A stretch of DNA of 64,000 bases from Candidatus Poribacteria bacterium (GTDB lineage Bacteria; Abyssobacteria; SURF-5): contig JACRIR010000209.1 of assembly GCA_016215705.1 (NCBI GenBank), forward strand, positions 16,530-80,529, given 5' to 3'. Under the pieces are notes generated by a model. It searched no databases. It saw only the letters and a list, made by a program, of their open reading frames with translations, and was not told the DNA's origin. The position numbers were made by a program, and so were the translations under genes. Positions 990 to 60,436 of the stretch are shown piece by piece (within the stretch, counting starts at the first letter, position 1; every line of letters starts with the position of its first letter).

Positions 990-1026
990 AATTCGGGGAC
1001 ACCATGCAGCATGGTGTCCCCGAATT
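990..1026. repeat. REP-like 37-bp perfect palindrome (family GGGGACAC-SATG-NCG-CATS-GTGTCCCC) between tRNA-Arg and tRNA-Lys
   Basis: aattcggggacaccatgc-a-gcatggtgtccccgaatt; related copies at 4628, 10728, 31622, 41716 and 47503. Confidence 0.85.
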
Positions 1027-4627: not shown

Positions 4628-4674
4628 GAGCATATTCGGGGACACGATGCCGCATCGTGTCCCCGAATATGCTC
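4628..4674. repeat. REP-like 47-bp palindrome 3 bp after the clpX stop; probable bidirectional terminator
   Basis: gagcatattcggggacacgatg-ccg-catcgtgtccccgaatatgctc. Confidence 0.85.
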
Positions 4675-4699: not shown

Positions 4700-4726
4700 G
4701 TCATTCTGAGCGAAGCGAAGAATCTC
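4700..4726. repeat. Solo copy of the 27-bp 'GTCATTCTGAGCGAAGCGAAGAATCTC' repeat core
   Basis: Exact core also present at 9226-9252, inverted at 9557-9583, 30223-30249 and 30280-30307, and degenerate at 56208-56235. Confidence 0.8.
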
Positions 4727-4751
4727 TCCTGCATATTCTTGAGGCTCACCG

Positions 4752-7071: not shown

Positions 7072-9171
7072 TCATGGATTTCCGGCGGGCACATCGTAAA
7101 TAAAAATGGAATAGCCGAGAACTTTCCTGGGTTTCAGCTTCTTGAGCCAGTCGTGGCAGTGTGGGTTGGCGAGATAGAGATTCTGGAGATAGGTGGCGCT
7201 TACAGCCCAGACGCCGGCAGAAGGCTCGCAACCATTGAGGTCGGCGTTGCTAAGGCCATAATACTCGAGCACGCCCCGGGGACCGAAATACTTTATCTTC
7301 ACGTCCCGGATTCTGTTTTCCTGCAAGTAGTTCATGAGATCGTTCAGATTCTGTCCCCAGTCGAGATTTGAATCCACAAGATATTTGTATCCTTTACTCG
7401 GCCCGCCGATCATCTCATTGAAGTATGCAAGATAGTGTGGGTATATCCACGCCGCTGAGCCCGCGTACCAAACACACAGAATCGCGAGCGCTCGTTTCCA
7501 TCGTTTGGATTCAAAGGAGGCAACCTTCCCGGCAAAAATGCAAAGGAGTGGAATCAATGGAAGGATGTATCGGATGCCTATGTTTATCCGAGATGGCAGG
7601 GAGAAGAAACCGATCATGATCAGGATTGAAAACAAGAGGAAACGTTCGTCAAATGTCCCCTTCCCCCCTTTGCCAAAGGGGGACGAAATGGAGTTCTCCT
7701 TTACAGAAGGATGAATAGTCGACTCCCTCTTTGCAGAGGGGGGAACAGTCGAGTCGCTATTTACAAAGCAACGAATGGCCGGGCTGCTCTTTACAGAGGG
7801 AGGAATAGTGGAGCCCTGCTCTGCAGAAGAGGGGACAACCTTGTCTTGTGGGCAGCCTTCTTGACTCCCCTTATGCAAAGGGGGGGAGGGGGGATTTGGA
7901 GAACAGGCTCTCTTTCCTCCTTTTTCAAGAGAGAATAATTTGCTGAGTGGTCGGCTCGATTTCAGGCTCGCCCCGGCAGCCGCAACCAGGCATATGATAA
8001 ACGGAATCGGAGTCTTGATGAGAAAAGCCACCCAGTAGAAGTACCACCAGCCCGTTCGCGAGATTTCTCCAAACAGGAAATTGTCTTTCCACCCTTTTGC
8101 TGCCGCGAGCTGTGTATAAATTCCAAGGATGTATGAATATGCGGGAATGCGAATGCCACGCAAGGCCAGCGCATCGACTGCCTGCCAAAAAGGTTTTTCG
8201 GCGACCAGCCTCTCTGCCTGCGGTTTCAGCCATTGCGGCATGAAGGGGGTTCCAAACTGGAAGCCGTAACCAGCCCAGACAACACAGGAAGCTATAAGTA
8301 AGATCAGCAGGAGGCATAGTAAATCCCCCCTCCCCCCCTTTGCAAAGGGGGGTAATGAAAACCTGATTCGGAGGGGGATTGCCTTTTCCACTCTCTTCAA
8401 AGGTGTCCCTGTTTCCTCTCCTCGCAAAGGTTCCCCTGTTTCTCCCCTTTGCAAAGGGGGGGAGGGGGGATTTACCAGCCGGAACAAGATAACTTCCAAC
8501 AACAGAATCGGAATCAGAATGAGTCCCGTGAACTTCGACAAAAGCGCGAGACCCAACGCCATGCCCGTAAGAACCATTCGCACGGCTGAAGGCGCTTGGA
8601 GGTATTTGTGAAATGAGTACAGCGCCAGCGTCATGGTGAACGCAAGCAGCATATCAGGCGTGGCAAGCTTACAGTGTGCGAGGATCGCCGGGCAAAGGGA
8701 ATATAAAAACAGGGAAACCAGCGCTGCGCCGGAACCATAAATCTCTCTTCCCCAACGATACACCAGGAGCCCCAGCAGCGCCGAGAGAAAGACGAACGGA
8801 ATGCGCGTAAGGAACATCATCAGGCGGGGAGATTGGCCGGATTCGAATATGAGCGATGGGCCTATATAGCGGCGGTAGACGTATTCCTTGTCCTCGAATC
8901 TGTCGGGATCGAGTTTCAACGGCAGGAGAAGAAGGCTGTTGACGTAATAGGGAAGCGGCGGATGCAATTGGAGCGCCACAATCTCCCAGTTCCTGGTTTC
9001 CAGCAACTGCCGGCCAATACCGATATAACTGGGCTCATCCCACGTGAGCGACGCGCGCCGCATGCTGCCCACCGCAAGCGCGAGGTGAATTGCCAGTAGC
9101 GCGGCAACTGCGAGGCGGGTTCTCATGTCATTCCGGGACCATTTGGTGTCATTCTGAGTCCTCGGTGTCAC
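7072..9171 (-). CDS. GT39/ArnT-like (PMT_2) membrane glycosyltransferase with two in-frame repeat/homopolymer insertions
   Basis: 699 aa, multi-TM; N-terminal DEPSYIGIGRQLLE...HPPLPYY resembles ArnT/PMT_2; ORF is continuous through repeat regions 7640-7905 and 8327-8480. Confidence 0.75.
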   Translation of the reverse strand: MTPRTQNDTKWSRNDMRTRLAVAALLAIHLALAVGSMRRASLTWDEPSYIGIGRQLLETRNWEIVALQLHPPLPYYVNSLLLLPLKLDPDRFEDKEYVYRRYIGPSLIFESGQSPRLMMFLTRIPFVFLSALLGLLVYRWGREIYGSGAALVSLFLYSLCPAILAHCKLATPDMLLAFTMTLALYSFHKYLQAPSAVRMVLTGMALGLALLSKFTGLILIPILLLEVILFRLVNPPSPPLQRGETGEPLRGEETGTPLKRVEKAIPLRIRFSLPPFAKGGRGDLLCLLLILLIASCVVWAGYGFQFGTPFMPQWLKPQAERLVAEKPFWQAVDALALRGIRIPAYSYILGIYTQLAAAKGWKDNFLFGEISRTGWWYFYWVAFLIKTPIPFIICLVAAAGASLKSSRPLSKLFSLEKGGKRACSPNPPSPPLHKGSQEGCPQDKVVPSSAEQGSTIPPSVKSSPAIRCFVNSDSTVPPSAKRESTIHPSVKENSISSPFGKGGKGTFDERFLLFSILIMIGFFSLPSRINIGIRYILPLIPLLCIFAGKVASFESKRWKRALAILCVWYAGSAAWIYPHYLAYFNEMIGGPSKGYKYLVDSNLDWGQNLNDLMNYLQENRIRDVKIKYFGPRGVLEYYGLSNADLNGCEPSAGVWAVSATYLQNLYLANPHCHDWLKKLKPRKVLGYSIFIYDVPAGNP
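7640..7905. repeat. Intragenic block of about five ~30-bp tandem units (CTCTTTACAGAGGGRGG...), flanked by C7/G5 and G7-A-G6 homopolymer tracts
   Basis: Encodes ~10-aa repeats STIPPSVKSS/STVPPSAKRE/STIHPSVKEN; palindromic motif ccctttgcaaaggg at both edges. Confidence 0.8.
8327..8480. repeat. Intragenic ~25-bp repeats bounded by inverted 'aaatcccccctccccccctttgcaaagggggg' ends (C6-T-C7 ... G7-A-G6); MITE-like, but in frame
   Basis: 8327-8364 is the reverse complement of 8454-8483; homopolymer runs of 6-7 nt lie inside the ORF. Confidence 0.8.
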
Positions 9172-9252
9172 ATTCTGAGCCCTTTGGTGTCATTCTAGCC
9201 CTCGGCGTCACATTCTGAGCCCTTCGGTGTCATTCTGAGCGAAGCGAAGAAT
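9144..9252. repeat. Five tandem ~21-bp units GGTGTCA(C)ATTCTGAGCCCTY ending in the 27-bp core gtcattctgagcgaagcgaagaatctc
   Basis: Read directly from the sequence; the core supplies the last 8 codons and the stop of the GIY-YIG ORF. Confidence 0.85.
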
Positions 9253-9544
9253 CTCCTTTCTCACACCAGCCATTGCTTAGGTCTTCCCATCGGGGGTTGA
9301 CCGCTTCGATCAAGGCCATCTTCTTTGCTCGCAGCCAGCCTTTGATTTGTTTTTCACGCGCGATAGCTGCCTGAACGTCATCGGTTTCTTCGAAGAATAC
9401 GAGGCGGGTGATATTGTATTTCTTTGTAAAACCGGGCACGAGTCTTTCCTTGTGCTCGTTCACTCTTCTAACCAAATCACCAGTTACGCCCGTGTACAGA
9501 CACCGTGATTTGTTGGTCATTATGTAAACATAATAACGCTTCAT
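9230..9544 (-). CDS. Small GIY-YIG nuclease-superfamily protein
   Basis: 104 aa; MKRYYVYIMTNKSRCLYTGVTGDLVRRVNEHK is a GIY-YIG motif; C-terminal ...GDSSLRSE* is encoded by the repeat core. Confidence 0.8.
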   Translation of the reverse strand: MKRYYVYIMTNKSRCLYTGVTGDLVRRVNEHKERLVPGFTKKYNITRLVFFEETDDVQAAIAREKQIKGWLRAKKMALIEAVNPRWEDLSNGWCEKGDSSLRSE

Positions 9545-9556
9545 TGGAGTGCAAGA

Positions 9557-9645
9557 AGAGATTCTTCGCTTCGCTCAGAATGACACCAGAGGGTTCAGAA
9601 TGATATTTTGCGCTCAGAATGGCACATTACGCCCGCGATAACATA
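9557..9645. repeat. Inverted copy of the 27-bp core plus two degenerate 21-bp units immediately upstream of the GIY-YIG start
   Basis: gagattcttcgcttcgctcagaatgacacc-agagggttcagaatgata-ttgcgctcagaatggcac. Confidence 0.8.
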
Positions 9646-9698: not shown

Positions 9699-10691
9699 TC
9701 ACTTCTCCTGCAGCGTCTCTTCTATTTTCATTCCGAAATGCCGGCCGCCTGCCTCGAGATGTACGAGCGTCTCCGTGCCCCTCTGCAGTGACGCTACAGA
9801 GACGGATTTGCCGCCGGGTTGGACGAGTCGAATGGTTTCGGCGTTTTGCAGGATTGTCGACACGCGCTTGTCGCCAACCTCCGCGACCACGAGCACGAGA
9901 GGGCGTCTCTCGATCTTGCAGCGGCCGACGCTGGCAATCTGGGTGCTGCCCTTGTGGTCGACCACCATAACCTCGTCTCCGGTTGCCAGCTCTGAGAGAT
10001 ACCGCGTCTTGCCGTCAGGATTGAGTATATAGGCGTGGACCGGCCCGGCGTTCACGCGGAACGGCCGAGCGGCCACGTAGGGATTCTCCTCGGATTCCGA
10101 TTGCACGAGAAAGAAGGCGTCGCTCGCGTTTCCGATAAGCATCCCCTGGCCAGGATTCATCTGGCTGCACGTGTCGATGCACACCCTGTCACCCATGCCA
10201 AGCAGCTTCGTCTCGACGACCGTCGCAGTTTCTATTCTAAGTGTAGGCATGATGCCGTGGATAATGTCGACAGTCTTGCCCACTTCGTTTGCGTCCTCGG
10301 TGAAAAGGACGACGCCGTCAACTCCCTTTTCCAGTATATTTACCGCAGTTCGGGCCGTCTTCGAGTCCTTGACTTCGACAAACAGGCCTCCACGCTGCGC
10401 GATAAGGTTTTCAAGCGGTATGATCGTCCAGTCCTTCATCCGCAAAATCAGAAGCTTGTCTTTAGGCGAACGGGCGGCCCGGACCTCGTCGTCCTTCCCG
10501 TTGACCTCGATGGACAAGACGTCTTTTCCGGGCTTTATATCGCCGTCCTCGGCTACCGTGGAAATCAGCCCGAGCTCTTTCACCCTGGCGGTGCATCCCC
10601 TCGGGACCACGACCGCGTCAGCCCCGCATTCGAGCGCGCGTATGACGATATCCTTGTTCCATGGGTCGGCGTTCACCCAGATTCTCTTCAT
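9699..10691 (-). CDS. 3-dehydroquinate synthase II (archaeal-type, AroB')
   Basis: 330 aa; resemblance to archaeal DHQ synthase II (PF01959-like) judged from memory of the family, no database search run. N-terminus MKRIWVNADPWNKD and C-terminal motifs of that family. Confidence 0.7.
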   Translation of the reverse strand: MKRIWVNADPWNKDIVIRALECGADAVVVPRGCTARVKELGLISTVAEDGDIKPGKDVLSIEVNGKDDEVRAARSPKDKLLILRMKDWTIIPLENLIAQRGGLFVEVKDSKTARTAVNILEKGVDGVVLFTEDANEVGKTVDIIHGIMPTLRIETATVVETKLLGMGDRVCIDTCSQMNPGQGMLIGNASDAFFLVQSESEENPYVAARPFRVNAGPVHAYILNPDGKTRYLSELATGDEVMVVDHKGSTQIASVGRCKIERRPLVLVVAEVGDKRVSTILQNAETIRLVQPGGKSVSVASLQRGTETLVHLEAGGRHFGMKIEETLQEK

Positions 10692-10727
10692 CGGCTACTT
10701 CTCCGGGAATTCCTTGCTCCTCTTTTC

Positions 10728-10768
10728 GTTATTCGGGGACACGATGTCGCATCGTGTCCCCGAATAAC
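10728..10768. repeat. REP-like 41-bp palindrome between the ADH synthase stop and the DHQS-II start
   Basis: gttattcggggacacgatg-tcg-catcgtgtccccgaataac. Confidence 0.85.
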
Positions 10769-10770
10769 AG

Positions 10771-11565
10771 TTACTTCTCCAGGACCAGCTTTGCCTGCTT
10801 GGCGGTTGCTCCGTCGTGCACGATCTTGCCGATCGCCTCGACAATCTTCTCCGGATTCCTGTGCTGGAAAGCGTTCCGGCCTATTGAAACACCGGCCGCG
10901 CCCGCTCTAAGCGCATTCTCGACCATGATGAAAAGCTGCGCATCAGTCTCGACCTTCTCGCCACCCGCTATGACGACTGGAACGGGGCAGCCCTTAACAA
11001 CCTCCTGGAACGACTCGACGCTGCCCGTATAATTGCACTTGACGATGTCCGCCCCAAGCTCTGCGCCTACCCGCGCCGCATGCTTCACATATTTCACATC
11101 GTATTCGCTTTCGATCTTCTTACCCCTCGTATACAGCATGGCAAGGAGCGGCATCCCCCACTGGAAACATGTCGTGGACACTTGCCCGAAGTATTCCAGC
11201 ATCTGTGTATCCTTCTCCGCCCCCAGGTTGATGTGGATGCTCACGGCGTCGGCGCCCAGCCTGACTGCTTCCTCCACCGTGCATACGGGAACCTTAGTGT
11301 TCGGGTCGGGGCTCATTGAAGTGCTGGCTGAGAGGTGAATGATGAGACCGACGTCTTTGCCACTGCCCCTGTGGCCGACTGCAACGATTCCTTTGTGAAT
11401 TATGATCGCGTTGGCGCCGCCTTCGACCACCTTATCTATGGTTGTCGGCATATCGACCAGGCCCGCAATTGGTCCCATCGTCGTCCCGTGGTCCATGGGC
11501 ACAATCACTGTCCGGTGCGAATTCCTGTCCAAAATCCTCTCGAGTCTTATCTTCTTGCCAATCAT
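10771..11565 (-). CDS. 2-amino-3,7-dideoxy-D-threo-hept-6-ulosonate (ADH) synthase, AroA' (class I aldolase, DhnA/LacD family)
   Basis: Best start at internal Met ([27 protein letters not shown]); the 412-aa ORF 10771-12009 is likely an artefactual N-extension; adjacent to DHQS-II. Confidence 0.65.
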
Positions 11566-11709
11566 AGCGATTCCTTTCACAAAGATTTTATGATTATATA
11601 CGCTCTCAATAGTTCTCAAAAGCTCAATGAACGAACGATATTCTACTCCATACCTGTCCGAAAAAGCAAAGAAACTCCTCAAATTCGGCCAATTTGCTAT
11701 AATGTTTTC

Positions 11710-12776: not shown

Positions 12777-15395
12777 TCAAACAGGCAGTATGATCTCCAC
12801 CGTGGTTCCTTCGTTGATCTTGCTTCTTATGTTCATGCTTCCATTATGCGCTTCCACGATCTTCTTGCAGATAGAAAGGCCCAGTCCTGTGCCCTTTGTC
12901 TTGGTCGTGAAGAAGGGCTGTTGGGCGTGCTCCAGATTCTCTTCACTTATTCCGCAGCCGCTGTCGGTGATAGAAACACTCAAGGTTCGCGTACCGGCGC
13001 ATTCCTTGAAACCTGAACGTATCCAGATGTCGCCCCCTTGGCTCATCGCTTCTGTCGCATTAGAAAGGAGGTTTGCCAGAACCTGGACAATCTTTCCGGC
13101 GTCGACAACTATCTCCGCTCCTTCCTGATCCAGTTCGAGATGAACGGCAAAGCCTTGAATCTTACTGGTCACCGTAGTCAAAGCCTGTTTCACAATGTCA
13201 CGGAGCGGCCAACGCAAACGTTCAAGCGCAACCGGCCTTGAATGTTCCAACAAATCCTCGATGATACGGTTCAGCGAGGTAATACCATAATCAATTTCGT
13301 TCAAAATCTCCTGCCTGCTTTTGTTCTCATTCAGTTCTTTCCGGATAGTGTCAACTCCCATGCGAATATTCTGCAGGGGATTCCTGATTTCGTGAGCCAC
13401 GACTGACACCATTCGGCCAATCGATGCAAGGCTTTCGGCTTGCTGGAGCTCCGCCACTTTTTTGCGGACTGTCGCATCGAGACTCTCCGAAAGGAGTCGG
13501 TAGCGTTCTTCAGACCCGCTCAATGCTCTCAGATACAGGCTGTTTCGCATGGCAATAGCGGCATGGTCGGCAAAAGCCGCTGCCAGCCGGGCGTCGTCAA
13601 CGGTGAACCCCCCGGGCTTGTTCGCAAGCCCTATGATACCGACGGTGTTTCCGTCCAGAAGAAGCGGGGCGAAAAGAACGTTTTCCAGCTTTGCGTGGCC
13701 GGGTGGCAGAAATGTTGTCCATGTGGACTCTGGGAAATTGTTTTCATACACGGTTTTCCCCGAGCTATATGCTTGGCCGCGCAATCCTCGGATCGGCATC
13801 GGGGCGGAAGGGTCAACATTGCATGGCATTCCTCCTGCCTCCAGGAACACAACCTCGTTTTGCGTTCCATCCTCGCTCAGGAGGCCAATATATCCGCCGG
13901 TTGCTCCAACCAGGCTCCTGCAGGACTCGAATATCGCCCTTGCGGCTTTCTCAAAATCCTGGTGTTCGAGGATAGAGTGAGAACTTCGGAGTAACGCCGA
14001 AGCCTCTTCGCTGTGTTTGCGCGATTCCTCAAGGGCTTTTCGAATTGTCTCTTCTGCCAAGTTGCGGTCGGTCGTATCGCGGACGACAGCGAGACCCCCC
14101 ACGATTTCACCCAACACATTGAAGAGCGGAGAATAATGCGCTGCAAAGAATCCTTGCCGACCTGTCTCCGGCACGAGGTACGGCCTGTCAGATGTAAGGT
14201 TCGTCTCGCCTGCAAGCGTTTTGGCGAAGTATTTGTCTTCCTCTGTCTCCTTCAAGAACGGGAAGACATCGAAAGCGCATCTGCCGAGGGCCTTTTCCTT
14301 GCTGACTCCGCTGATACGTTCCATTCCGGGATTCCATACGGTGTATCGGAATTCACGGTCAAAGGCGAGGATGCCGTCAACGCTGCTGTTGATCAGATGT
14401 TCGGAGAATTCCTTTTCGGCTCGCAGTTGCTCTTGAGCCTTCTTGCGTTCGGTAATGTCATCAATGGCGAGGAGAATCGTGCCGGCGCCTACGCTTTTTC
14501 GATAAATCTGGCGGCCATTAAGTACCATCACTCTGCGACCGATGCCCGTGAATGTGTTTTCTACCTCGAAGTCTTCGAAATGAGTTCTGTTTGACAAGAT
14601 ATCTTTCAACAATTCCTGCAGTTTGGGAATGTTCCACTGACCGCTTCCAAGATCGGAGACAAGCCTATTAATTGTTTCTTCTTCTGAAACCCTGAATGTC
14701 TTATAGAAAGCCCGATTAGCCGAAACGACTCGCAGGTCAGCATTAAGAACAAGGAGAGGTTCTCGCACAGTTTCTACAATGCTCTCGGCGTAGGCTCGTG
14801 CCTGCTTCGCTTCATCTTCCGCCTTCTTGCGCTTGCTGATATCTCGAATCAGCCATCGCACGCCCGTCAATACGCCCTGTTGGTCTCCAATAGCGGTTGC
14901 GGTTATTGCAGCATAGAAGACAGCCCCTCTTCTCGGCTGCATGCGCACTTCCCAATTCTCCACTCGATCAACCTGCGCGTGCCGGGAAAGACGAGCGAGA
15001 AAAGATTTTCGCTCCCCTTTGGCCAGAAAGAGAACCAACGGTTTGCCGATAAGAAATTTCTGCGTGACGTTCAGCAAGGCCGAGGCGCCACGATTGGCCT
15101 CTAGGATGATGTGGGCGGCATTGGTTACTAAGTAGCCGTCCGGAGCAAACTCGAACAACTCCTGATAGCGATGCCGTTCTGCCTCGGCGGTCTGGCGGGC
15201 AGCGGCAAGTTCCTCATTTTGCTGGCGAAGTTCCTCGTCCGCGACCTCTAATTCTTCCAGAGTGTTCATCAATTCTTCGATGACTTCCGGCAAGACATCG
15301 TCCCTTCGAATCTCCGCGCCAGTGCTGCGACTACTCAGTTCCGTGACCCGTCGTCGCAACTCTCCTATCTTGCGATCAAATTCGGAATATTCCAT
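12777..15395 (-). CDS. Multi-PAS/GAF sensor histidine kinase (no receiver domain) with N-terminal EEL-rich coiled coil
   Basis: 872 aa; N-terminus ELMNTLEELEVADEELRQQNEELAAAR; PAS x3, GAF, HisKA (VAHEIRNPL), HATPase_c. Confidence 0.85.
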   Translation of the reverse strand: MEYSEFDRKIGELRRRVTELSSRSTGAEIRRDDVLPEVIEELMNTLEELEVADEELRQQNEELAAARQTAEAERHRYQELFEFAPDGYLVTNAAHIILEANRGASALLNVTQKFLIGKPLVLFLAKGERKSFLARLSRHAQVDRVENWEVRMQPRRGAVFYAAITATAIGDQQGVLTGVRWLIRDISKRKKAEDEAKQARAYAESIVETVREPLLVLNADLRVVSANRAFYKTFRVSEEETINRLVSDLGSGQWNIPKLQELLKDILSNRTHFEDFEVENTFTGIGRRVMVLNGRQIYRKSVGAGTILLAIDDITERKKAQEQLRAEKEFSEHLINSSVDGILAFDREFRYTVWNPGMERISGVSKEKALGRCAFDVFPFLKETEEDKYFAKTLAGETNLTSDRPYLVPETGRQGFFAAHYSPLFNVLGEIVGGLAVVRDTTDRNLAEETIRKALEESRKHSEEASALLRSSHSILEHQDFEKAARAIFESCRSLVGATGGYIGLLSEDGTQNEVVFLEAGGMPCNVDPSAPMPIRGLRGQAYSSGKTVYENNFPESTWTTFLPPGHAKLENVLFAPLLLDGNTVGIIGLANKPGGFTVDDARLAAAFADHAAIAMRNSLYLRALSGSEERYRLLSESLDATVRKKVAELQQAESLASIGRMVSVVAHEIRNPLQNIRMGVDTIRKELNENKSRQEILNEIDYGITSLNRIIEDLLEHSRPVALERLRWPLRDIVKQALTTVTSKIQGFAVHLELDQEGAEIVVDAGKIVQVLANLLSNATEAMSQGGDIWIRSGFKECAGTRTLSVSITDSGCGISEENLEHAQQPFFTTKTKGTGLGLSICKKIVEAHNGSMNIRSKINEGTTVEIILPV

Positions 15396-15452
15396 GTCTA
15401 CAACCTAACCGGTATTGGATGCTCCATTCATTTGCCGACAAGAGAAAGAGAA

Positions 15453-15474
15453 CAACTCAACTCAACTCAACTCA
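15453..15474. repeat. Pentamer SSR (CAACT)x4 upstream of the histidine-kinase gene
   Basis: caactcaactcaactcaactc. Confidence 0.8.
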
Positions 15475-15609
15475 GGCTGGTGTAACATTAATATAACAAT
15501 ATTGAGTCTTGCATCATCCTTGTCCGGAAGCAAGTAAGACGTTACTCGCCATGGTGAGCCCTTTTCCCTCCAATCCTTCAGTCCCTTTTGGCCTCCGCCT
15601 CTTTTAACC

Positions 15610-15636
15610 GGAACCATGAACTCGGAACCATGAACC
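15610..15636. repeat. Two tandem 'GGAACCATGAAC' units (same GTTCATGG motif as the heptamer array at 60437-60503)
   Basis: ggaaccatgaactcggaaccatgaacc. Confidence 0.7.
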
Positions 15637-15640
15637 CTCC

Positions 15641-17509
15641 TTAATGTGTCTCCCCCTCCTCCATCAATATGATGACGCCTTCGATTTCCTTCGTGGCGCC
15701 GATCAAAGGCGAGCTGGTCACATGGCATTGTATCGCCTTGCCACGACGGCTTATGGCGTCCACGGTCGCTTCGTGAATGTCGGTTTCTCCGGCAAGCACT
15801 GCGCGAATGAGTCCTTTCAGTTGCTCGACCGGCAGCCCGATATCCAGATTCAGGAGGAACTGGTCCTTCACCTCATCGGCCCGCAGTCCCCACAAGTCTT
15901 CCGCCTTCTTGTTCCAATTGGTGACTTTGAGGTTTCGGTCCACGACAACTACTCCCATGCGTACCCCGCCAATAATGGATTCGAGGAAAGCGTTCATCTG
16001 ATTCAGCATATCGGTGCGCTCGCGCAGCTCGTCATTGATCGTGTTCAGTTCCTCGTTGGTGGCTTGCAGTTCCTCGTTCATGGTTTCCATTTCCTCGCTG
16101 GAGGACTGGAGTTCCTCATTTGTGGTCTCGAGTTCTTCGACGGTAGACTGCAATTCCTCGTTTGTAGTCTCGAGTTCCTCGCTCGAGGATTGGAGTTCCT
16201 CATAGGCGCTCTCAAGTTCGTTCGTGGACTGTTCGCACTCGCGCTCCAACTGATTATAACGAGTTACGTCGGTGAATGTCATGCTCACGCCAAGGGAGAT
16301 TCCGCTGCTGTCAAACAGAGGCACTAGATAGATATCCAAATACTGAGGTTCCCTTTCGGGGAAAGTTCGTTCCACGTTTGTGATGTAGACCGATCTCATC
16401 TCCGAATAAGCCTGTTTGATACGCGAACGGAGTTCCAACGGCCGATACGAAACTTCCAGTTCGTGAAAGGGTCGGCCCACATCCCTGATGTCCAGTCCGA
16501 ACAGAGACAATGCTTCGGCATTCGCCATCGTCAGGTTCTCATTTTGGTCCACGACCATCTGCGCCGATGGAGCTCTCTCGAAGACAGCTTCCTGCAGTTG
16601 GGGGTACGGAGCCTGAAGCTCACGCGCCGCGGCGCAGCCGGCTTCGACCACGACTGGCGCGCGTCCTTGCAGACGGATAGCGCCGGGTGTCTTCTTGAAA
16701 ATGCGGTATTTCAGGTTTGTCGGCACAAAGAGATTCGTGTGCGTGAGTATCATTTCCGCCTTACCCAGAAAGAGGAACCCGTCGTCATTGAGGGCGAAGT
16801 GCAGGCGGCTTAGTATCTTATTCTGAGTCTCGGAGTTGAAATACATAAGGGTATTGCGGCAAACGAGCAGGTCGATGCGCGAGATAGGAGAGTCCTTCAT
16901 AACGTCATGAGCCCCGAAAATAGCAGAACGGCGAAATTCAGGCGAGAAGGCGTGACGGTCTTGTGCTCGGGTGAAGTATTTGTCTTTGAATTCGGCGGGG
17001 AACCCCTCCATTTGCGCGTCGCTGTAAAGCGCATGGCGCGCTTCATTCAAGGCGTTTTCGTCTATATCCGTGGCATATATCTTAACTCGTTTCTTGAACT
17101 GCTCCGCCCCCAAAGCTTCCGCAAACACGATGGCAAGGCTGTAAGCTTCCTCGCCCGAGGCGCAGCCCACACTCCACACTCGGATGGGCTCCCCTTCCGG
17201 TTTTCCCTCGATTATCTGCGGGACAACTTCATGCGCAATGTATTCCCATGCGGGCGCATCCCGGAAAAAACTGGTCACGTTTATCAGAATCGTATTGAAC
17301 AGATGGGCGAACTCGTCGGGGTGTACCTCGAGGTAATCCATGTAATCGCCGTAGTCTTGTTTGTTCACCGTCTGCATTCTCTTGTTGACACGGCGCATCA
17401 GGCTCGTTCGCTTGTAACCGGTGAAGTCGAACCCGCGCTCCCTTTTTATGAATTCAAGGAGAGCTTCAAATTTGGGGTCGTGCGCAGGGTCCTTCTTCTG
17501 GTCGGTCAT
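15641..17509 (-). CDS. CheR-type MCP methyltransferase fused to a PAS domain and a long EELQxxNEEL heptad-repeat coiled coil
   Basis: 622 aa; CheR SAM-binding region VWSVGCASGEEAYSLAIV; tandem repeats ELESAYEELQSSSEELETTNEELQSTVEELETTNEELQSSSEEMETMNEELQATNEEL; C-terminal PAS. Confidence 0.85.
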   Translation of the reverse strand: MTDQKKDPAHDPKFEALLEFIKRERGFDFTGYKRTSLMRRVNKRMQTVNKQDYGDYMDYLEVHPDEFAHLFNTILINVTSFFRDAPAWEYIAHEVVPQIIEGKPEGEPIRVWSVGCASGEEAYSLAIVFAEALGAEQFKKRVKIYATDIDENALNEARHALYSDAQMEGFPAEFKDKYFTRAQDRHAFSPEFRRSAIFGAHDVMKDSPISRIDLLVCRNTLMYFNSETQNKILSRLHFALNDDGFLFLGKAEMILTHTNLFVPTNLKYRIFKKTPGAIRLQGRAPVVVEAGCAAARELQAPYPQLQEAVFERAPSAQMVVDQNENLTMANAEALSLFGLDIRDVGRPFHELEVSYRPLELRSRIKQAYSEMRSVYITNVERTFPEREPQYLDIYLVPLFDSSGISLGVSMTFTDVTRYNQLERECEQSTNELESAYEELQSSSEELETTNEELQSTVEELETTNEELQSSSEEMETMNEELQATNEELNTINDELRERTDMLNQMNAFLESIIGGVRMGVVVVDRNLKVTNWNKKAEDLWGLRADEVKDQFLLNLDIGLPVEQLKGLIRAVLAGETDIHEATVDAISRRGKAIQCHVTSSPLIGATKEIEGVIILMEEGETH

Positions 17510-18138
17510 GTGGCGTCACCTCTCATCACGAGAGTCACAATGGCTGACGAAATTTCGGGCAGTGGCAATACGAAGTCCACGTCTCCCGTCTGAATGGCTG
17601 CGGCCGGCATGCCGAAAAATTCCGAGGTTTCCTCATCCTGCGCAATCACGGTTCCCCCCATCTTCTTTATAGCACGCACGCCCATCGAGCCGTCACTGCC
17701 TGTGCCTGTTAAGACTATGGCGATCGCACGCTCCTTGTGACTGGCGGCTACCGATTCGAATAGCAGGTCGGCCGAAGGCCGAACGAAATGGACCAACTCC
17801 GACTCGGTGAGTGAGAGGGAACCATCGGTGTTCACGAGGAGATGCCGGTTTGGGGGCGCAATATAGACGGTGCCGGCCGTCAATACATCGTCTTTCTCCG
17901 CCTGTTTGACTCGCAAAGGCGTGTGCCGGGATAATATGTCGGCCATCAGGCTGCGGTGTCTCGGATCAAGGTGTTGGACCACAACAATAGCGGCCGCAAA
18001 ATCCATGGGCAACCCGCGTAGAACATCCTCGAGCGCCCTCAGCCCCCCCGCTGATGCAGCTATGGCCACGATGTCAAAACCTGCGCCCGAGAAAAAAGAT
18101 ACCTTCTCTGCTTTGCCTGTTTTCTCACGCTTCATCAT
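17506..18138 (-). CDS. CheB-type methylesterase (catalytic domain only, no REC domain)
   Basis: 210 aa; IVAIAASAGGLRALEDVL and VVVQHLDP methylesterase motifs; 4-bp ATGA overlap with the cheR-like gene. Confidence 0.85.
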   Translation of the reverse strand: MMKREKTGKAEKVSFFSGAGFDIVAIAASAGGLRALEDVLRGLPMDFAAAIVVVQHLDPRHRSLMADILSRHTPLRVKQAEKDDVLTAGTVYIAPPNRHLLVNTDGSLSLTESELVHFVRPSADLLFESVAASHKERAIAIVLTGTGSDGSMGVRAIKKMGGTVIAQDEETSEFFGMPAAAIQTGDVDFVLPLPEISSAIVTLVMRGDAT

Positions 18139-19731: not shown

Positions 19732-20400
19732 CTAACCCCGGGTGCCCACGCCCGCCGCGCCTTGTTTGGGCCGCAGGGTGAAGGCATAGAAGTTATACGG
19801 ATAACTGTAATCGACGTGGTGGACGTCAACAAAATTAAAATCGACCCGCAGCGCATCCTCAAATGTCCTACGGTCTTTGATGCATTTCCCTCTATCAAGC
19901 TTACATATTATTCGGGCGGGAATATCCAGAACGTTTTCGGGCAACATGCAATCCACAATCACCACGATAGCCTCGCTTTTGCAGACACTGGCGATTTCCT
20001 TGAGGGCCTTTTTCATGCTCTCCATGTCAATATGATGAAAGATAACAATGCTGAATACGAAGTCGAAAGTTTCTCTCTTAAAGGGTAAAAGGGTAACGTC
20101 TCCACAAACGAATTGCAGCCGCTTTTGCGACTTGCCTGCGAGATACTTCGGATTGATATCGAGCGCGTAGTAGTTGCTCTCGAACAAATGAGCGTACCTC
20201 CCTGTGCCGCACCCGACGTCAAGGATTCTTCCCCGCGCGTTCTCAGCAAGAAGCCTTTCAATATGCTTCAACGCTCTTTTCCTGCCAATCGAAAAGATTT
20301 CTTGGGAAAGATCATATATAAACGGAATCTCAAGGACTTGGTATATCTTCCGAGACAGCCTCTGGATCAGTCCCTGGTCAGGTTTTCTTTCGGATGCCAA
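19732..20400 (-). CDS. Class I SAM-dependent methyltransferase
   Basis: 222 aa; SAM-binding motif ILDVGCGTGRYA. Confidence 0.8.
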   Translation of the reverse strand: MASERKPDQGLIQRLSRKIYQVLEIPFIYDLSQEIFSIGRKRALKHIERLLAENARGRILDVGCGTGRYAHLFESNYYALDINPKYLAGKSQKRLQFVCGDVTLLPFKRETFDFVFSIVIFHHIDMESMKKALKEIASVCKSEAIVVIVDCMLPENVLDIPARIICKLDRGKCIKDRRTFEDALRVDFNFVDVHHVDYSYPYNFYAFTLRPKQGAAGVGTRG

Positions 20401-20464
20401 CGCAAGAGTCCTCCCTGTTTCAACCTGGTCTGGCGAGGTCGGATTTGGGCTTCTTCACACAGGT

Positions 20465-23386
20465 TCAATGTGGCGCTAATTTTATCCGGCACTCGCGCAT
20501 CGATGTATCTATTCTCACGGGCACAATGTCGAACCTGTCCGATGACCCTGCCATGAAAACGAGTTTGTTATACACCGGCTTCATGCGACCGTCGGGAACA
20601 AGCTGCAGGAATCTGAAGCTGTGGTCTCCTTTCGCAAGCTTGAGAATCGCCTGCGCTTCCCATCGATCATTCTCCGGTGGGGGAGATTCGGAAGCCGTAT
20701 TGAATACCCTGACCGTGAATTCATTGTCAACAAAGAGTTGATATGCCTGGGGCGGGAACTCCATCAGCAGATCATAGATTCCATCTTCTTCCAAATGAAT
20801 CTTCGTCTCAAGGAGTTGAGGCGTCTGGAAATTCGTCTTTCCTTCTGTGCCTTCCACGGTTTGCGGATTATAGGGTGTAATTGGCTCAAAGGGCCGGCGA
20901 AATCCTTCGACGTGCTTGCTCGATGCCAACGGCGCGTAACAGAAGACCAGAATCAGAACCAGCGCAACGCCTTCGCGATATTTCCGATCTGAGAGGAGAA
21001 TTCCAAAAACAGAAAGCAGTCCCATGATACTGAGAGCTAACCCGAGATAGAATGCGCGCGGCTGATAAGAGAAGGTTACCGTGTGTTTTCCGGCCGGAAC
21101 GGGAACGCCGCGGAAGACGTAGTTTGTCCGGTATATTCTCACCGGTTCTTCATCGACGCTTGCTTTCCATCCCGGGAAGAAGACCTCGCTCGAGAAAAGG
21201 AAACCCGGACGCGGAATGTCAATTTCCACCCTGACAAACTCGTTTCGGGATTCAATCATCCTGGCTTCATTCTTGATCTGCAATAATCTGTCCGTTTCGT
21301 TGACGGCCCTCTCCGTTCTCCCACTCCTCAATGCGGAAAACTCATGCGGCAGGTCTTCCTCGATGTAGTTCCTGTTCAAGGGGTCAAACTCGGGGGAAAG
21401 CATTCTCTCAATGATGTCGGCGCGCGGGAGTTTCTCCACCCCGTAGACAACGAAATGCCTCGGGAGGAAAAACTCCACCCCGAATCTGGTGTTCAACAAA
21501 CTCCTGACTCGCCTGCTTTCCCGCGTTTTCAAGAAGAAATAATTCGTGTCAAACAGGCTCCCTTCATAACCAGTCATGGAATAGGGGGGATTGTAACTGG
21601 GCAGCGTGCTGTTGACGCAGAGGAAAGGCTGGATCATGAGACTGTCGATCCTGCCTATTCTCTCCAACTCCGGCGCCGGAATGTGGTAGTAGTTCGCGTT
21701 GAGACGATTGGTTAGTTGAGACCTCGCATCCTTGATCCCGGGGTCGGTCTTGCTGTAGTAAGCGAAACCGACCCGCGGGCCGGCTTCCTTGCGAAAAGTG
21801 GAATGCGACAAGTCTGCGACCACTATTGCCACCGCGAGCCAGGGAAAGATGCGGCTTTGCCTTCCCCTCCGGAAACCGGATAATAGAACAATCAGCGCCA
21901 GGAATGAGACGATGGCCCACACGGTATAATCGTGGCGGTAGAGTCGGCTTTGCATGTAAGGCGCGAGCCCGGGAAAGAGCCAAATAATCGCACAGATTGT
22001 CAAGAGCGCTGCGACTGCGCTCATTACGGCCAATTTGACATTATTCGGAACCGTCCCCTTCCCTGTCAGCGTGTCCATCCCATAGCCTGAGAGCGCTGCG
22101 ACGCAAAACATGTTTAATATTAGAGTTCTTCCCGGATTCGTGAGCCCCTTGAACAAAGGAACGTAATCGTACACAAATCTCTGAAGCGGAAGACTGAACG
22201 CGGATTTTGTCGAGTACACGGCTGTTATCAGAATGGCGAAGACAAAAAACTTCTTATGCTTGTATCGCTTGTCTTGGGATATAACTCCAACGAACGCGAG
22301 AATGAGCGACAGCAGTCCCACATAATGATCTCTCTCCGTATATGCGATGGAAGGCAAAATGTAGCCCAAGACAGTTTGTGCGGGTGTGCATCCGTAAATC
22401 AGCGTTTCGGCCAGGTCGAACCCACCCTGCCTGTTATAGTGCGAAATATACTCCAGGCCGGGCAGCAACTGAACGGAGACAAGACAGATTGCCAGAGCGA
22501 TTGCCACGCCAAAGTATAGAAGGGCCAGGGCATATTTCTTTCTGTCAAAGTAGGAATGATGAATCTGTTCCGCAATTGCGTTGGTGCGTAGGGCCGCTGT
22601 GTGCGCGGATTTGTTCTCAGAGGACTCCCGGCCTGTGTCGGACTTTGGCCCGCGAACAAGGCGCCCACACAATTGTGCGACGGAGTCATGCTTCTCGACG
22701 AGGGCGAAAGCAAGAATGAGGGCAATGAATCCCACGGAATAAATGAAATTCGCCGGGTAGTTTGCGAAGTATGACATGGCAAATAGCAGGGAAAGACATG
22801 CGATATGTCTCCTGCGGGGCTGTTGAAGCAGCCTGAATGCGAATAGAACCAGCAACGGGAGCCACATGATACTGTGCGCCGCGCCCGCAGTCCTCATTAT
22901 ATCTTCCAGCCGCAGATTGAATCCCCATACAATAGCGCCCACCAGAGCGCCCCATCTGTTGATCTTCAGGTCCCTCATGAGAAAGTAGAAAAAGCAGCCG
23001 GTCAGTCCCTTCGCCGCAAAAAGATAGACGATGAATCTGCAAAACGGCAGTATGTGGTCAGGGTTATTGAACTTGGACAAGGCAATGGTGAGTGGATAAA
23101 GGACGCCCGAGAGGGGAGAGGCAAAATATGGCGCCCCAAACCCCCAGTTCGGGAGCCATAGCCCGAGTTCTCCGTTGAGCAAGAGGCCGGTGCTCGCGGC
23201 AAGGATATTGTACGTCTGGACGAAGTCGTTCCCGAAAGGGTAAATCTTCGGAAACGGTCCAAAGGCAAAGAAGACGTTCCAATTGACGAGGAGAGGGAGG
23301 AAGAGTATCAACGCCACGGGGGCGAGATCAAACTTATATTCTCCGATGGCCTGGCTTATCCGCGTTTTCAACGAGAACTCCTGCAA
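20465..23386 (-). CDS. YfhO-family large membrane glycosyltransferase-like protein (GT-C fold)
   Basis: 973 aa, >10 TM segments in the N-terminal half, large C-terminal extracytoplasmic domain ending in the YfhO-like segment ...FFPGWKASVDEEPVRIYRTNYVFRGV... Confidence 0.65.
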   Translation of the reverse strand: MQEFSLKTRISQAIGEYKFDLAPVALILFLPLLVNWNVFFAFGPFPKIYPFGNDFVQTYNILAASTGLLLNGELGLWLPNWGFGAPYFASPLSGVLYPLTIALSKFNNPDHILPFCRFIVYLFAAKGLTGCFFYFLMRDLKINRWGALVGAIVWGFNLRLEDIMRTAGAAHSIMWLPLLVLFAFRLLQQPRRRHIACLSLLFAMSYFANYPANFIYSVGFIALILAFALVEKHDSVAQLCGRLVRGPKSDTGRESSENKSAHTAALRTNAIAEQIHHSYFDRKKYALALLYFGVAIALAICLVSVQLLPGLEYISHYNRQGGFDLAETLIYGCTPAQTVLGYILPSIAYTERDHYVGLLSLILAFVGVISQDKRYKHKKFFVFAILITAVYSTKSAFSLPLQRFVYDYVPLFKGLTNPGRTLILNMFCVAALSGYGMDTLTGKGTVPNNVKLAVMSAVAALLTICAIIWLFPGLAPYMQSRLYRHDYTVWAIVSFLALIVLLSGFRRGRQSRIFPWLAVAIVVADLSHSTFRKEAGPRVGFAYYSKTDPGIKDARSQLTNRLNANYYHIPAPELERIGRIDSLMIQPFLCVNSTLPSYNPPYSMTGYEGSLFDTNYFFLKTRESRRVRSLLNTRFGVEFFLPRHFVVYGVEKLPRADIIERMLSPEFDPLNRNYIEEDLPHEFSALRSGRTERAVNETDRLLQIKNEARMIESRNEFVRVEIDIPRPGFLFSSEVFFPGWKASVDEEPVRIYRTNYVFRGVPVPAGKHTVTFSYQPRAFYLGLALSIMGLLSVFGILLSDRKYREGVALVLILVFCYAPLASSKHVEGFRRPFEPITPYNPQTVEGTEGKTNFQTPQLLETKIHLEEDGIYDLLMEFPPQAYQLFVDNEFTVRVFNTASESPPPENDRWEAQAILKLAKGDHSFRFLQLVPDGRMKPVYNKLVFMAGSSDRFDIVPVRIDTSMRECRIKLAPH

Positions 23387-23484
23387 GTCTTCCGATACTG
23401 ATTTCCGGGTCGGTTATTCAACAACTGTGCCGGTGCGAATTTCTGCGCATATTATTCTCGCTCATAATTGCTGGATAGATTCGG

Positions 23485-25650
23485 CTATACATGTCTTCTC
23501 TTCTGTGAAGTCCATGAGATGAGAAAAAAGGCTGCCATAAGCCCAAGGCCGGCAGCGGACATCCAGGCTCCGACAAGCAGACTTCTCGGTCGAAAAGAAA
23601 ACTCTACATCGTGCCTTCCCGCGTCAACGACACAACCCATGAAATCCCCATAGACTCGCACTACCGGCCTCTCCCTTCCATCCACGCTTGCTTGCCAGCC
23701 TTTATGATAACTTTCGGACAGAATCAGGAGTTGTTTTGTTTCGGCCAGAGTCGCGACTCGAATCTTGCCAGGATGATCATGCGTGATGGTCGCCTTGCCC
23801 GGCGTACCCTCCTGCAGCGCAACCGACGAGGGAACGAGCGCCGTAGTTTCGACATCGATAGTATCGATGTCACTCTTGGGGTCAGAACCGACGAGCGCCT
23901 GTGCAACCAGTCTTGCCCTTGGAAGCGGAGCAGGCACTTCCGCTCCATAGACGCTTCCACTCAACGCATACAGCCCTTGCTTGTGTTTCTCCCAAACCCA
24001 ATGCACGTTTGCCACCCGCAAACGTGCGAGACTCATAGGTTCAAGTTGTTGCCTGGGCGGTATGCAGACAAACCCGCCCGCAATTCGGACCCCTTTCATG
24101 AGCCAGACGTTGTCGTCCGACATGAGACGGTACCGCGAGACGTCGGGAGGCGTTGGCGCAAAACCGTAGAAGCCTTCGAGCTTTGTTCCCGGCTCATTAT
24201 CCCGGATATAAGTCAACCCGTAGATACCCTGATCCGCGACGGCGAACAGAATCATCCCTGCGAAGGCCCATCGTTTTCCGCGCGCCGCCATAATAATAAT
24301 TGCGCCCGCCAGGATCATGAGAAGCGGATCGGAGAGGATAAGGTTTCTCGATGCGACACCCGAAGCAAAGTGTTGAGCCAATGTCGGGGTCTTTTCGGCC
24401 TTGGCAAGGAGAAAGAGTACGGCGAGCGATATGCTTGCGAGGGGGGCCAGCCCCAGCGGCCAAAGCTTCCTCCATGCGAGTCGGCCGCAAGATTGCACAA
24501 TCCTTGAGATGTCCGTATAGGCAATGGATGCCCCAATGGCCAAGGCAAGTTGAAACAGCAGGATATACCGGCAGGGCGCGCGAAATGCTCCAATAACCGG
24601 CACGAGAGTCTGGAGCCGATACAGATAGCCGTGCTGCCCCAGGGAAAGAATTCCCGACAAGGTGGCCAACCCGATGACTCCCGTCGCAAGTGTCCGCAAA
24701 GCCCCCAACTCCTTTCTACGGACTATGAGCAGGGCCAATAATATCACTGGAAGTGTCCCTATATATATCTTTAGTTCATATGGGATTCCACGAAACGCAA
24801 AGTCGTTGAATGAATATGGCGACAACAATTGCAATATGTGAATCGGGCGCAGACTGGGCCAGTAACGAGACCATGCTGGGTCAGTCCGACTAGTAATAGA
24901 AAGGGCGTCCCATGACGGTATAAGTTGAATGCCGCCCGCCAACACGCCGAGCAACTTGGCGATTCCAAGCGCCGAAAGCCGCCCCCAACACCGAAGCGAG
25001 AGAAGCAGGAGGAGTGTATACAAGGCTTCGGCCGACGATGAAATCCAGAAGACCTGGGGATGACCCAGAAGCAGTTGGGATGCTGTGAACAGTCCCACGC
25101 CTAACTTGGCAAATGCCACTTGGCGCCCATCGATCCCCCGCAACGCAACATCGATTGAAAACAAAAGCCAGGGAATATGCGCAGCGACGGAAACGGCATT
25201 ATAATGCACATAGTGCAACAGGTTAAACCCCGAGAATGTAAATACGAGTGCCCCAAATACACTCGCGTCGCGCGGAATCTGCCAGCGTCGCAAGAATAAG
25301 AACATGCCAGCCATCATGAAAGGATAATTGAGAAGCATCTCAAGGTTGAATGCTGCTCCGAACGGAAATATGCTGTAGAGAATCAGATGAAGGGGGTGGA
25401 GCATGCCCGCTCCACCGTCGCCATGGAGGTAGAATCCACATAGGACACTTGGAAGCCACAGGAAGCTGTCGCCTGACGCCAGACTCTGCGCATAGAAAAA
25501 GCGCATGGGGAGATGGTATCTGCTAAGGTCATCGTGTTTGTAGACTTGACCCTTGAACAAGGGCAGTCCGAGCAGACAAAGAATGATTAAACCCGCCGCC
25601 AGCCCCAGCCAAAAAGAACGGTTCTCTGTTCTGCGTTCATCCATATTCAT
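23485..25650 (-). CDS. YfhO-like membrane protein, paralog of the upstream gene
   Basis: 721 aa; C-terminal ...YHKGWQASVDGRERPVVRVYGDFMGCVV... parallels the C-terminus of the 973-aa protein. Confidence 0.65.
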   Translation of the reverse strand: MNMDERRTENRSFWLGLAAGLIILCLLGLPLFKGQVYKHDDLSRYHLPMRFFYAQSLASGDSFLWLPSVLCGFYLHGDGGAGMLHPLHLILYSIFPFGAAFNLEMLLNYPFMMAGMFLFLRRWQIPRDASVFGALVFTFSGFNLLHYVHYNAVSVAAHIPWLLFSIDVALRGIDGRQVAFAKLGVGLFTASQLLLGHPQVFWISSSAEALYTLLLLLSLRCWGRLSALGIAKLLGVLAGGIQLIPSWDALSITSRTDPAWSRYWPSLRPIHILQLLSPYSFNDFAFRGIPYELKIYIGTLPVILLALLIVRRKELGALRTLATGVIGLATLSGILSLGQHGYLYRLQTLVPVIGAFRAPCRYILLFQLALAIGASIAYTDISRIVQSCGRLAWRKLWPLGLAPLASISLAVLFLLAKAEKTPTLAQHFASGVASRNLILSDPLLMILAGAIIIMAARGKRWAFAGMILFAVADQGIYGLTYIRDNEPGTKLEGFYGFAPTPPDVSRYRLMSDDNVWLMKGVRIAGGFVCIPPRQQLEPMSLARLRVANVHWVWEKHKQGLYALSGSVYGAEVPAPLPRARLVAQALVGSDPKSDIDTIDVETTALVPSSVALQEGTPGKATITHDHPGKIRVATLAETKQLLILSESYHKGWQASVDGRERPVVRVYGDFMGCVVDAGRHDVEFSFRPRSLLVGAWMSAAGLGLMAAFFLISWTSQKRRHV

Positions 25651-26022
25651 CTGTACTACTCATTTTCAAAATCACAAATTCTTGTCGTGATTTCTTGCAC
25701 GAACCTAACGCATATTAGTCACACGGGCGCAATGAATTGCGCCCCTACAGACACGAATCAAGATGCTCCGTAGGGGCGCGATTCATCGCGCCCGATTCGT
25801 GCTGTTTGGTTGCGGCTATGCTGCGCTGTACTACTCACGTTCGAAATCATGAATTCGTGTCGCAATTTCCTCTTCTTCTTTTTCGTAAAATCCGTGTCCA
25901 TCCGTGTGCATCTGTGGCTAAGATGCCTCTTTTTCTTCTTCTCCCCAAATCCGTGGAATCCGTGAAATCCGTGGTTCCCTTTGTTTCTTCTTTTGTTTGG
26001 TTGCGGCTCTGCCGCGCTATGT
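25651..26022. repeat. Repeat-rich 372-bp leader/promoter region with ~45-bp direct repeats (~80% identical), GGGCGC..GCGCCC hairpins and TCCGTG microrepeats
   Basis: 25651-25695 vs 25825-25872; tttggttgcggct at 25816 and 25999; hairpins at 25725-25745 and 25773-25792. Confidence 0.7.
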
Positions 26023-27591: not shown

Positions 27592-27607
27592 AGCAGTCTC
27601 TTAATAC

Positions 27608-28549: not shown

Positions 28550-28737
28550 CCTGCGGTCCTTCTTATTCGCTAAATCCGGAGGCTGCCGCCCGCAAACATA
28601 CGGCCTTCTCTTGCGCCTCTTCCGTGATCAATAACATCACGCATGTCCTTGACCTTACTAAGATTAGCCTAACCTAACTTGCAAAGTCAAGCGCCGATCG
28701 GCGCAAATCCGGTGGTTGCGGGATTGCGGGTGCATGC

Positions 28738-28772
28738 TTGACAAATCGTGTCTTATACTCTATTTTGAGATT
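28738..28772 (+). promoter_or_regulatory. Possible sigma70 promoter TTGACA-N17-TATTTT for the divergent methyltransferase gene
   Basis: Hexamers read from the sequence; the ORF-track TTG start coincides with the -35 box, so the true start is probably downstream. Confidence 0.3.
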
Positions 28773-60414: not shown

Positions 60415-60436
60415 GGTTTCTCTCCCGTCTCTCGAC

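Follow-up and report, generated by a model that had tools for sequence, protein, structure and literature searches.

A probably functional and vertically inherited aroA'-aroB' operon for the aspartate-semialdehyde route to 3-dehydroquinate in an Abyssobacteria-like bacterium

Introduction

Two enzymes of Methanocaldococcus jannaschii, the 2-amino-3,7-dideoxy-D-threo-hept-6-ulosonate (ADH) synthase MJ0400 and the 3-dehydroquinate (DHQ) synthase II MJ1249, belong to the same two families as the products of a gene pair, aroA'-aroB', that we analysed in a 64,000-nt stretch of contig JACRIR010000209.1 (the whole stretch is hereafter called the window, and all coordinates are given within it). As PMC4162585 and PMC9012536 present this archaeal work, the donor substrate in Methanocaldococcus is given as DKFP (6-deoxy-5-ketofructose-1-phosphate); a tabulated assay of the M. 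jannaschii DHQ synthase II (DHQS II) lists the highest activity with NAD+. In contrast to M. jannaschii, the host of the window is bacterial and the two genes stand in one operon.

Closer relatives of the pair are the bacterial aroA'-aroB' operons of Desulfobacterota, Nitrospirota, Planctomycetota, Verrucomicrobiota and other groups (NF002627/TIGR01949), which share its subfamily (53-72% identity), gene order and orientation. The window pair differs from them in standing alone, without downstream pheA, aroD, aroE, aroA, aroK, aroC or tyrA, and in its 79-nt spacer, which holds a 41-nt palindrome resembling repetitive extragenic palindromic (REP) elements, whereas the median spacer elsewhere is 6 nt. 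The Price 2018 and GapMind papers explicitly discuss neither enzyme, and the Abyssubacteria paper does not mention shikimate. AroB' is 100% identical to GenBank MBI5118343.1, named '3-dehydroquinate synthase II [Candidatus Poribacteria bacterium]'; it is therefore already annotated under the DHQS II name, and the pair has its annotation in GenBank.

From the identity of the two genes, their conserved residues, the conservation and distribution of the operon, and its synteny and composition, we conclude that the pair is very probably a functional two-gene operon for the aspartate-semialdehyde (ASA) route to DHQ, inherited vertically in an Abyssobacteria-like lineage. [quoted passage not shown]

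Identity of AroA' and AroB'

The gene aroA' (10771-11565, minus strand) encodes a 264-aa ADH synthase, a class I (Schiff-base) aldolase/transaldolase, and aroB' (9699-10691, minus strand) a DHQS II of 330 aa; both open reading frames (ORFs) lie next to each other on the minus strand, exactly where the original prediction had placed them. Profile scores were judged against the curated cut-offs of Pfam and NCBIfam (equivalogs). AroA' matches PF01791 (DeoC/LacD) and scores above threshold with both TIGR01949 ADH_synth (363.4 bits; cut-off 299.45) and NF005556 (401.8 bits; cut-off 241), while remaining well below the cut-offs of the sister families, namely archaeal class I fructose-1,6-bisphosphate (FBP) aldolase (207.5 bits against 430), LsrF (178.4 against 297) and BagB (223.3 against 500). 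An LsrF thiolase identity is ruled out by this score. AroB' obtains 408 bits with PF01959 (DHQS; cut-off 22.2), residues 2-330 aligning to positions 1-344 of the 344-position model, and 457.6 bits with the NCBIfam equivalog NF002627 '3-dehydroquinate synthase II' (cut-off 392), aligned over 1-330 on 1-330. Membership of unrelated aldolase or dehydrogenase families, which the original prediction had named as a possible refutation, is thus not what the profiles indicate: both proteins lie above the ADH synthase and DHQS II equivalog cut-offs and the rival models below theirs.

The best PDB match of AroA' is M. jannaschii MJ0400 (2QJG; E = 9e-101), with about 60% identity as counted from the alignment. 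In this alignment Asp33, Tyr153 and Lys184 of MJ0400 correspond to the identical residues D25, Y145 and K176 of AroA', within the conserved motifs PMDHG, MLY and DIVK. We take Tyr153 to have a catalytic role. Asp33 is the proton acceptor and Lys184 the Schiff-base lysine of MJ0400 (Gulko et al., PMC4162585). For AroB', we used an alignment of 159 bacterial and archaeal family members, including the labelled archaeal proteins of Methanotorris, Methanobacterium, Haloquadratum and Bathyarchaeia; AroB' keeps the consensus residue at all 42 of the columns that are at least 93% conserved.

The best start for aroA' is the ATG at 11565, which follows an AGGA 7 nt upstream; the ATG of aroB' follows a GGAG 9 nt upstream. 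A mechanical ORF list also gave a TTG-initiated aroA' ORF of 412 aa, which is a spurious over-extension, since homologues measure 264-267 aa. Neither gene is degenerate.

Structural comparison added little for AroB'. In the 2026 copy of the PDB, no solved structure of any DHQS II family member was detectable by sequence. An AlphaFold2 model (mean predicted local distance difference test score 79.8) points to a TIM-like alpha/beta architecture in the N-terminal part and a beta-rich domain at the C-terminus, and Foldseek returned only weak, generic TIM-barrel matches (PRAI, PcrB, transaldolase, pyruvate kinase), which we discarded as mechanistic clues.

If the archaeal enzymology applies, AroA' would use its counterpart of MJ0400 Lys184 as the Schiff-base lysine and transfer a C3 fragment from a ketose-1-phosphate donor to L-aspartate semialdehyde, giving ADH; AroB' would then oxidatively deaminate ADH with NAD+ and cyclise the product to 3-dehydroquinate, from which the canonical shikimate pathway would proceed. 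The pair is very probably a housekeeping locus of the 330-aa DHQS II subfamily, not a recent archaeal import, with a species-level REP-like hairpin inserted between its two cistrons. The two enzyme identities, and the ASA/DKFP route bypassing DAHP synthase and classical AroB, had been proposed from the sequence beforehand; profile scores, conserved catalytic residues and genomic context bear out the former and back the latter.

A widespread bacterial operon family

Scanning GTDB, at one genome for each species, with a pair of peptide patterns yielded at least 599 candidate stretches, 597 of which encode a DHQS II relative; the family is hence present in at least 597 species genomes. In a library of 1.8 billion proteins it forms 1,394 clusters at 50% identity. 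Neighbourhoods were analysed for the best 80 of these at least 597 loci (53-89% identity), with neighbour families defined by clustering all ORFs and assignments confirmed with NCBIfam. These 80 loci are almost all bacterial and come from Nitrospirota, NPL-UPA2, Planctomycetota (Brocadiia, Sedimentisphaerales, Pirellulales, Phycisphaerales), Verrucomicrobiota, Kiritimatiellia, Lentisphaerae, Armatimonadota, Hebobacteria, Clostridia and many Desulfobacterota.

Enough upstream DNA was available at 74 of the 80 loci. At 63 of these 74, the gene immediately upstream, on the same strand, is that for ADH synthase (median spacer 6 nt); nine more have it within 3.3 kb, leaving two with none within the flank. 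Aromatic-pathway genes are frequent neighbours across the 80 loci, nearly all on the same strand and just downstream of the pair: EPSP synthase (23 loci), shikimate dehydrogenase (20), chorismate mutase/prephenate dehydratase (17), type I dehydroquinase, aroD (12), shikimate kinase (9), prephenate dehydrogenase (8) and chorismate synthase (7). After the pair, Desulfobacterota-like genomes carry pheA, aroD, aroE, aroA, aroK and aroC, and in some loci tyrA. This adjacency is strong context evidence that the bacterial 330-aa subfamily feeds the shikimate pathway. Other neighbours are lineage-specific, namely MgtC in Planctomycetota, an FGGY kinase in four loci of the Planctomycetes-Verrucomicrobia-Chlamydiae (PVC) group, queC/queE, tadA and an aminotransferase.

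The aroA'-aroB' pair is thus common in many bacterial phyla, and that of the window is an ordinary member of a widespread operon family. The label 'archaeal-type' given by the original prediction is historically fair, but the protein is part of a 330-aa subfamily (NF002627) that spans many bacterial phyla. AroB' is 47-48% identical to methanogen DHQS II proteins and keeps all family-invariant residues, whereas the labelled archaeal proteins measure 361-399 aa and have a different, longer N-terminal region.

Four loci (L038, L043, L050 and L052) come from metagenome-assembled genomes (MAGs) labelled Candidatus Nanohalarchaeota or Aenigmatarchaeota that carry the bacterial 330-aa DHQS II. The three that were placed in the tree (L038, L050 and L052) fall among Desulfobacterota sequences, and L038 and L050 have full bacterial-style aro operons; mis-binning or mislabelling is therefore a more probable explanation than archaeal origin.

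Vertical inheritance and alternative readings

Around the pair the gene order is tig-clpP-clpX-GTPase-(PMT_2-like glycosyltransferase)-aroB'-aroA'-(GH32N)-tatA/C/B-UDP-glucose dehydrogenase-GT2. It is kept wholly or partly in relatives at 89%, 81%, 80% and 79% identity, including Ca. Abyssobacteria SURF_17; in the relatives, tatABC and the UDP-glucose dehydrogenase gene come straight after GH32N or aroA'. By comparison, the window has as insertions the GIY-YIG gene, a DUF362 gene, additional glycosylation genes and a block of PAS/GAF histidine kinase, CheR and CheB. GC content is flat across the window (0.51-0.56; 0.55 for the pair), and the GC contents at third codon positions (GC3) of the two genes, 0.73 and 0.71, are the highest in it; next come clpX and one sulfatase gene, both at 0.70, and the GTPase gene at 0.69. 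The next relatives of AroB', at 78-89% identity, include Candidatus Abyssobacteria/Abyssubacteria MAGs (a class of Hydrogenedentota), so that the organism is probably Abyssobacteria-like in spite of the Poribacteria name on its record. In a rough neighbour-joining tree, AroB' groups with Abyssobacteria-like sequences in one tight clade, which lies amid those of PVC, Armatimonadota, Nitrospirota and Desulfobacterota, while the four labelled archaeal DHQS II (43-48% identity to AroB') sit on distant branches; HMMER alignments of AroB' to these begin only at query residue ~53-80.

These data bear directly on the proposal of the original prediction that the pair was possibly acquired horizontally. 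Such a recent gain, from archaea or as a mobile cassette, could draw on the GIY-YIG mini-element with 45-nt inverted repeats directly downstream, on the REP-like palindrome in the spacer, on the first description of the ASA/DKFP pathway in archaea (PMC4162585) and on the ~60% identity of the ADH synthase to the M. jannaschii enzyme. However, the pair occupies an identical chromosomal position, with the same neighbours, in the relatives at 79-89% identity; its GC3 resembles that of core genes; its nearest homologues are all bacterial (53-89% identity), the archaeal DHQS II being more distant and different at the N-terminus; the GIY-YIG element, of lower GC content and missing from the relatives, is a separate and later arrival; and the palindrome lies inside the operon instead of bracketing it. 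Because synteny, composition, tree position and the placement of the palindrome form four independent tests that agree, we reject a recent transfer, which we hold to be highly improbable. The phylogeny that had been suggested as a check, here the rough tree of DHQS II, set AroB' among bacterial sequences and apart from the four labelled archaea, and the marks of a recently transferred genomic island (atypical composition, a break in synteny, a foreign tree position) were all absent.

Alternative functions can be weighed on similar grounds. ASA is also a substrate of GriI/GriH-type enzymes, which are homologous to these two families, so that the pair could in principle be a 3-amino-4-hydroxybenzoate (3,4-AHBA) synthase of secondary metabolism like GriI/GriH and BagB/BagC of Streptomyces, which have homologous aldolase and DHQS-II-like folds. 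The NCBIfam models BagB_FevI and BagC_FevH (NF041223/NF041224) indeed give significant E-values, but the scores, 223.3 and 176 bits, are far below the cut-offs of these exception models, 500 and 750, whereas those of the ADH synthase and DHQS II equivalogs are passed; secondary-metabolite genes and a biosynthetic cluster context are absent from the window, and members of the subfamily stand in operons with aroD, aroE, aroK, aroA, aroC, pheA and tyrA. We regard this identity as exceedingly improbable. A less remote alternative, though still quite unlikely, is that AroA' is mainly or also a class I FBP aldolase, or takes FBP instead of DKFP as donor. The Halobacterium salinarum homologue OE1472F has FBP aldolase activity and FBP was proposed as its alternative donor (PMC4162585), MJ0400 was crystallised with fructose 1,6-bisphosphate (PMC4162585; title of PDB 2QJG), and no DKFP synthase candidate lies near the pair in the 80 bacterial loci. 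On the other side stand the archaeal class I FBP aldolase score given above, less than half its cut-off, an FBP aldolase activity of <0.1 mU/mg for recombinant MJ0400 (one study, as cited in PMC4162585), and the close linkage with aroB' at 63 of the 74 loci, which argues for a primary role in DHQ synthesis. By the curated cut-offs, both the 3,4-AHBA synthase and the FBP aldolase identities are ruled out.

The donor substrate

Several points weigh against the pair being a functional ASA-route operon inherited vertically. ORF clustering found no DKFP-forming enzyme, for which the original prediction had suggested looking, either in the window or in the conserved neighbourhoods of the 80 bacterial loci. 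OE1472F showed no detectable ASA+DKFP transaldolase activity (PMC4162585). The 64-kb window holds no other aro gene, no DAHP synthase and no classical aroB; the DHQS II tree is a simple neighbour-joining tree without support values; and our literature search found no biochemical work on the bacterial 330-aa DHQS II subfamily.

The donor substrate is uncertain in archaea as well: for the haloarchaeal homologue the ASA+DKFP transaldolase reaction could not be demonstrated, and DKFP synthase is missing from many archaea with the pathway (PMC9012536). Across the 80 loci, ORF clustering likewise found no aldolase or methylglyoxal synthase as a conserved partner. It is conceivable, if rather doubtful, that the lineage depends wholly on the ASA route and yet has no recognisable DKFP synthase, like most bacteria carrying the pair. 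Were this true, either the bacterial 330-aa/264-aa pair would work with another donor (FBP, say, or some other ketose phosphate) or there would be a DKFP-forming enzyme yet to be discovered. The locus has little importance beyond correct annotation: the general question is the bacterial source of a DKFP-like donor, and this locus is no more tractable for it than hundreds of others.

Four Verrucomicrobiota, Kiritimatiellae and Lentisphaerae genomes carry an ORF of ~549 aa, divergent and just upstream of aroA', on the minus strand (L013, 3376-5046; L014, 3273-4901; L017, 3441-5069; L039, 3379-5241), which by eye has the look of an FGGY-family, xylulokinase-like sugar kinase. FGGY kinases include 6-deoxy-ketohexose 1-kinases (rhamnulokinase, fuculokinase). 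The kinase could relate to the supply of a DKFP donor, and its position may equally be plain synteny of related genomes.

An intercistronic REP-like palindrome

The spacer between aroA' and aroB' contains a perfect palindrome at 10728-10768, with 19-nt arms and a 3-nt loop, that begins 2 nt after the aroA' stop codon. The pair had been described as bracketed by REP palindromes; one perfect palindrome does lie near it, but between the genes, and none was found upstream of aroA' (11566-11709). The family core is ATTCGGGGACACGATGNCGCATCGTGTCCCCGAAT, that is, TTCGGGGACACGATG-N3-CATCGTGTCCCCGAA. Four full copies occur in the window (992-1024, 4635-4667, 10732-10764 and 41722-41754). All are intergenic, most of them close behind the 3' end of a gene: the sites are between tRNA genes, 4 nt past clpX, in the aroA'-aroB' spacer and behind a TPR gene. 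Half-sites number 10 against 1.4 expected, one of them at 31649-31659. In copy 1 both arms are altered in such a way that they still pair, and the stem of each copy is extended by its own flanking bases.

REP elements of Proteobacteria are likewise short, perfect, G+C-rich palindromes with several intergenic copies, mostly 3' of genes, and with changes that keep pairing. In contrast, the window sequence is unrelated to theirs, no REP-associated tyrosine transposase (RAYT) gene was seen in the window, and four copies were counted in 64 kb. None of 83 related loci from other contigs contains an exact copy, apart from a diverged arm in the 89% relative, where an assembly gap (N-gap) at the same spot is followed by 'gatgtcctcgaataac'. 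This diverged arm beside the gap suggests that the element predates the split of the window species and its 89% relative.

As RNA on the transcribed strand, the palindrome has a folding energy of -38.9 kcal/mol (z = -6.6). It is not a classical intrinsic terminator, since no U-tract follows on the transcribed minus strand. Intercistronic REPs in E. coli can stabilise upstream message, and by analogy the hairpin could stabilise the aroA' message. Its effect may at most be to adjust how stable the aroA' and aroB' messages are relative to each other; that it sets the AroA':AroB' ratio may be considered as a smaller possibility.

Upstream of aroA', the 144-nt divergent intergenic region that it has in common with the GH32N-like gene contains a sigma-70-like match on the minus strand (11590-11619; TTGAGA-18-AATCAT, 9/12), which is a consensus match only and no sign of function.

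The GIY-YIG gene and its repeat

Both flanking genes of the original prediction, GIY-YIG and a GH-J-like hydrolase, are present by Pfam matches. The GIY-YIG gene (9230-9544, minus strand; 104 aa; PF01541, E = 9e-15) lies between 45-nt inverted repeats at 9211-9255 and 9558-9602 that are 93% identical, its last codons (..DSSLRSE*) falling inside the repeat. It is a composition outlier, with a GC content of 0.47, the lowest in the window, and a GC3 of 0.52. It is a separate, later insertion specific to the window, because it is absent at the aro site from the relatives of 79-89% identity and differs in GC content.

A second repeat, GTCATTCTGAGC (GAAGCGAAGAATC), occurs in eight copies in the window against 0.38 expected and flanks the GIY-YIG gene, not the aro pair; further sites of the repeat or its core are 4700-4727, 30222-30300, 56208-56236 and 9126-9240. 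The 25-28-nt core GTCATTCTGAGCGAAGCGAAGAATC is also seen on its own, in an inverted pair that encloses no gene, and in degenerate tandem copies of ~21 nt. Metagenome contigs with its exact 25-mer number at least 120 and stem from many habitats. Among 80 metagenome loci with the exact 25-mer, only three carry a GIY-YIG homologue, in two of which the motif overlaps the 3' end of the gene, as here; we accordingly rejected a general tie of the GTCATTCTGAGC repeat to GIY-YIG genes. In the window, the gene and repeat resemble the relation of REPs and RAYTs, but with a GIY-YIG nuclease. Our literature search found no paper tying GIY-YIG to REP or REPIN.

Other neighbouring genes

The GH32N-type gene, clan GH-J-like, is on the plus strand with a likely start at 11710 (Pfam Glyco_hydro_32N, E = 2.6e-20); its translation, read by eye without alignment, shows the candidate catalytic motifs LWDFW, WRDP and EVP. 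It was rejected as a functional partner of aroA': the two are adjacent only in the window's own lineage (L002/L005, L003, L007), and the adjacency is therefore synteny and not linkage.

On the other side of the GIY-YIG gene, the PMT_2-like glycosyltransferase gene (7072-9126, minus strand) has two in-frame insertions relative to a homologue of 57-63% identity in L008 (684 against 561 aa), one of ~36 aa within residues 219-266 and one of ~104 aa at residues 390-493. The insertions are low-complexity and repeat-like (PPSPPLQRGE, PFAKGGRGD, PFGKGGKG); positions 8398-8457 hold a 27-nt tandem repeat. The real start of the gene is probably 9126, since the mechanical start at 9171 runs into the GTCATTCTGAGC repeats.

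Two blocks of the window are extra relative to its relatives (12777-18138 and 19732-30300). They comprise PAS/GAF histidine kinase, CheR(PAS) and CheB genes, and ~10 kb of methyltransferase, YfhO and PMT-like genes that sit between tatC and the UDP-glucose dehydrogenase gene. Farther along, at 44162-45709 and 59047-63578, are three sulfatase genes, two of which adjoin a radical-SAM/SPASM maturase-like gene (60546-61919) with a C-terminal SEC-C motif; the sulfatase and maturase-like genes plausibly form an anaerobic sulfatase-maturation pair.

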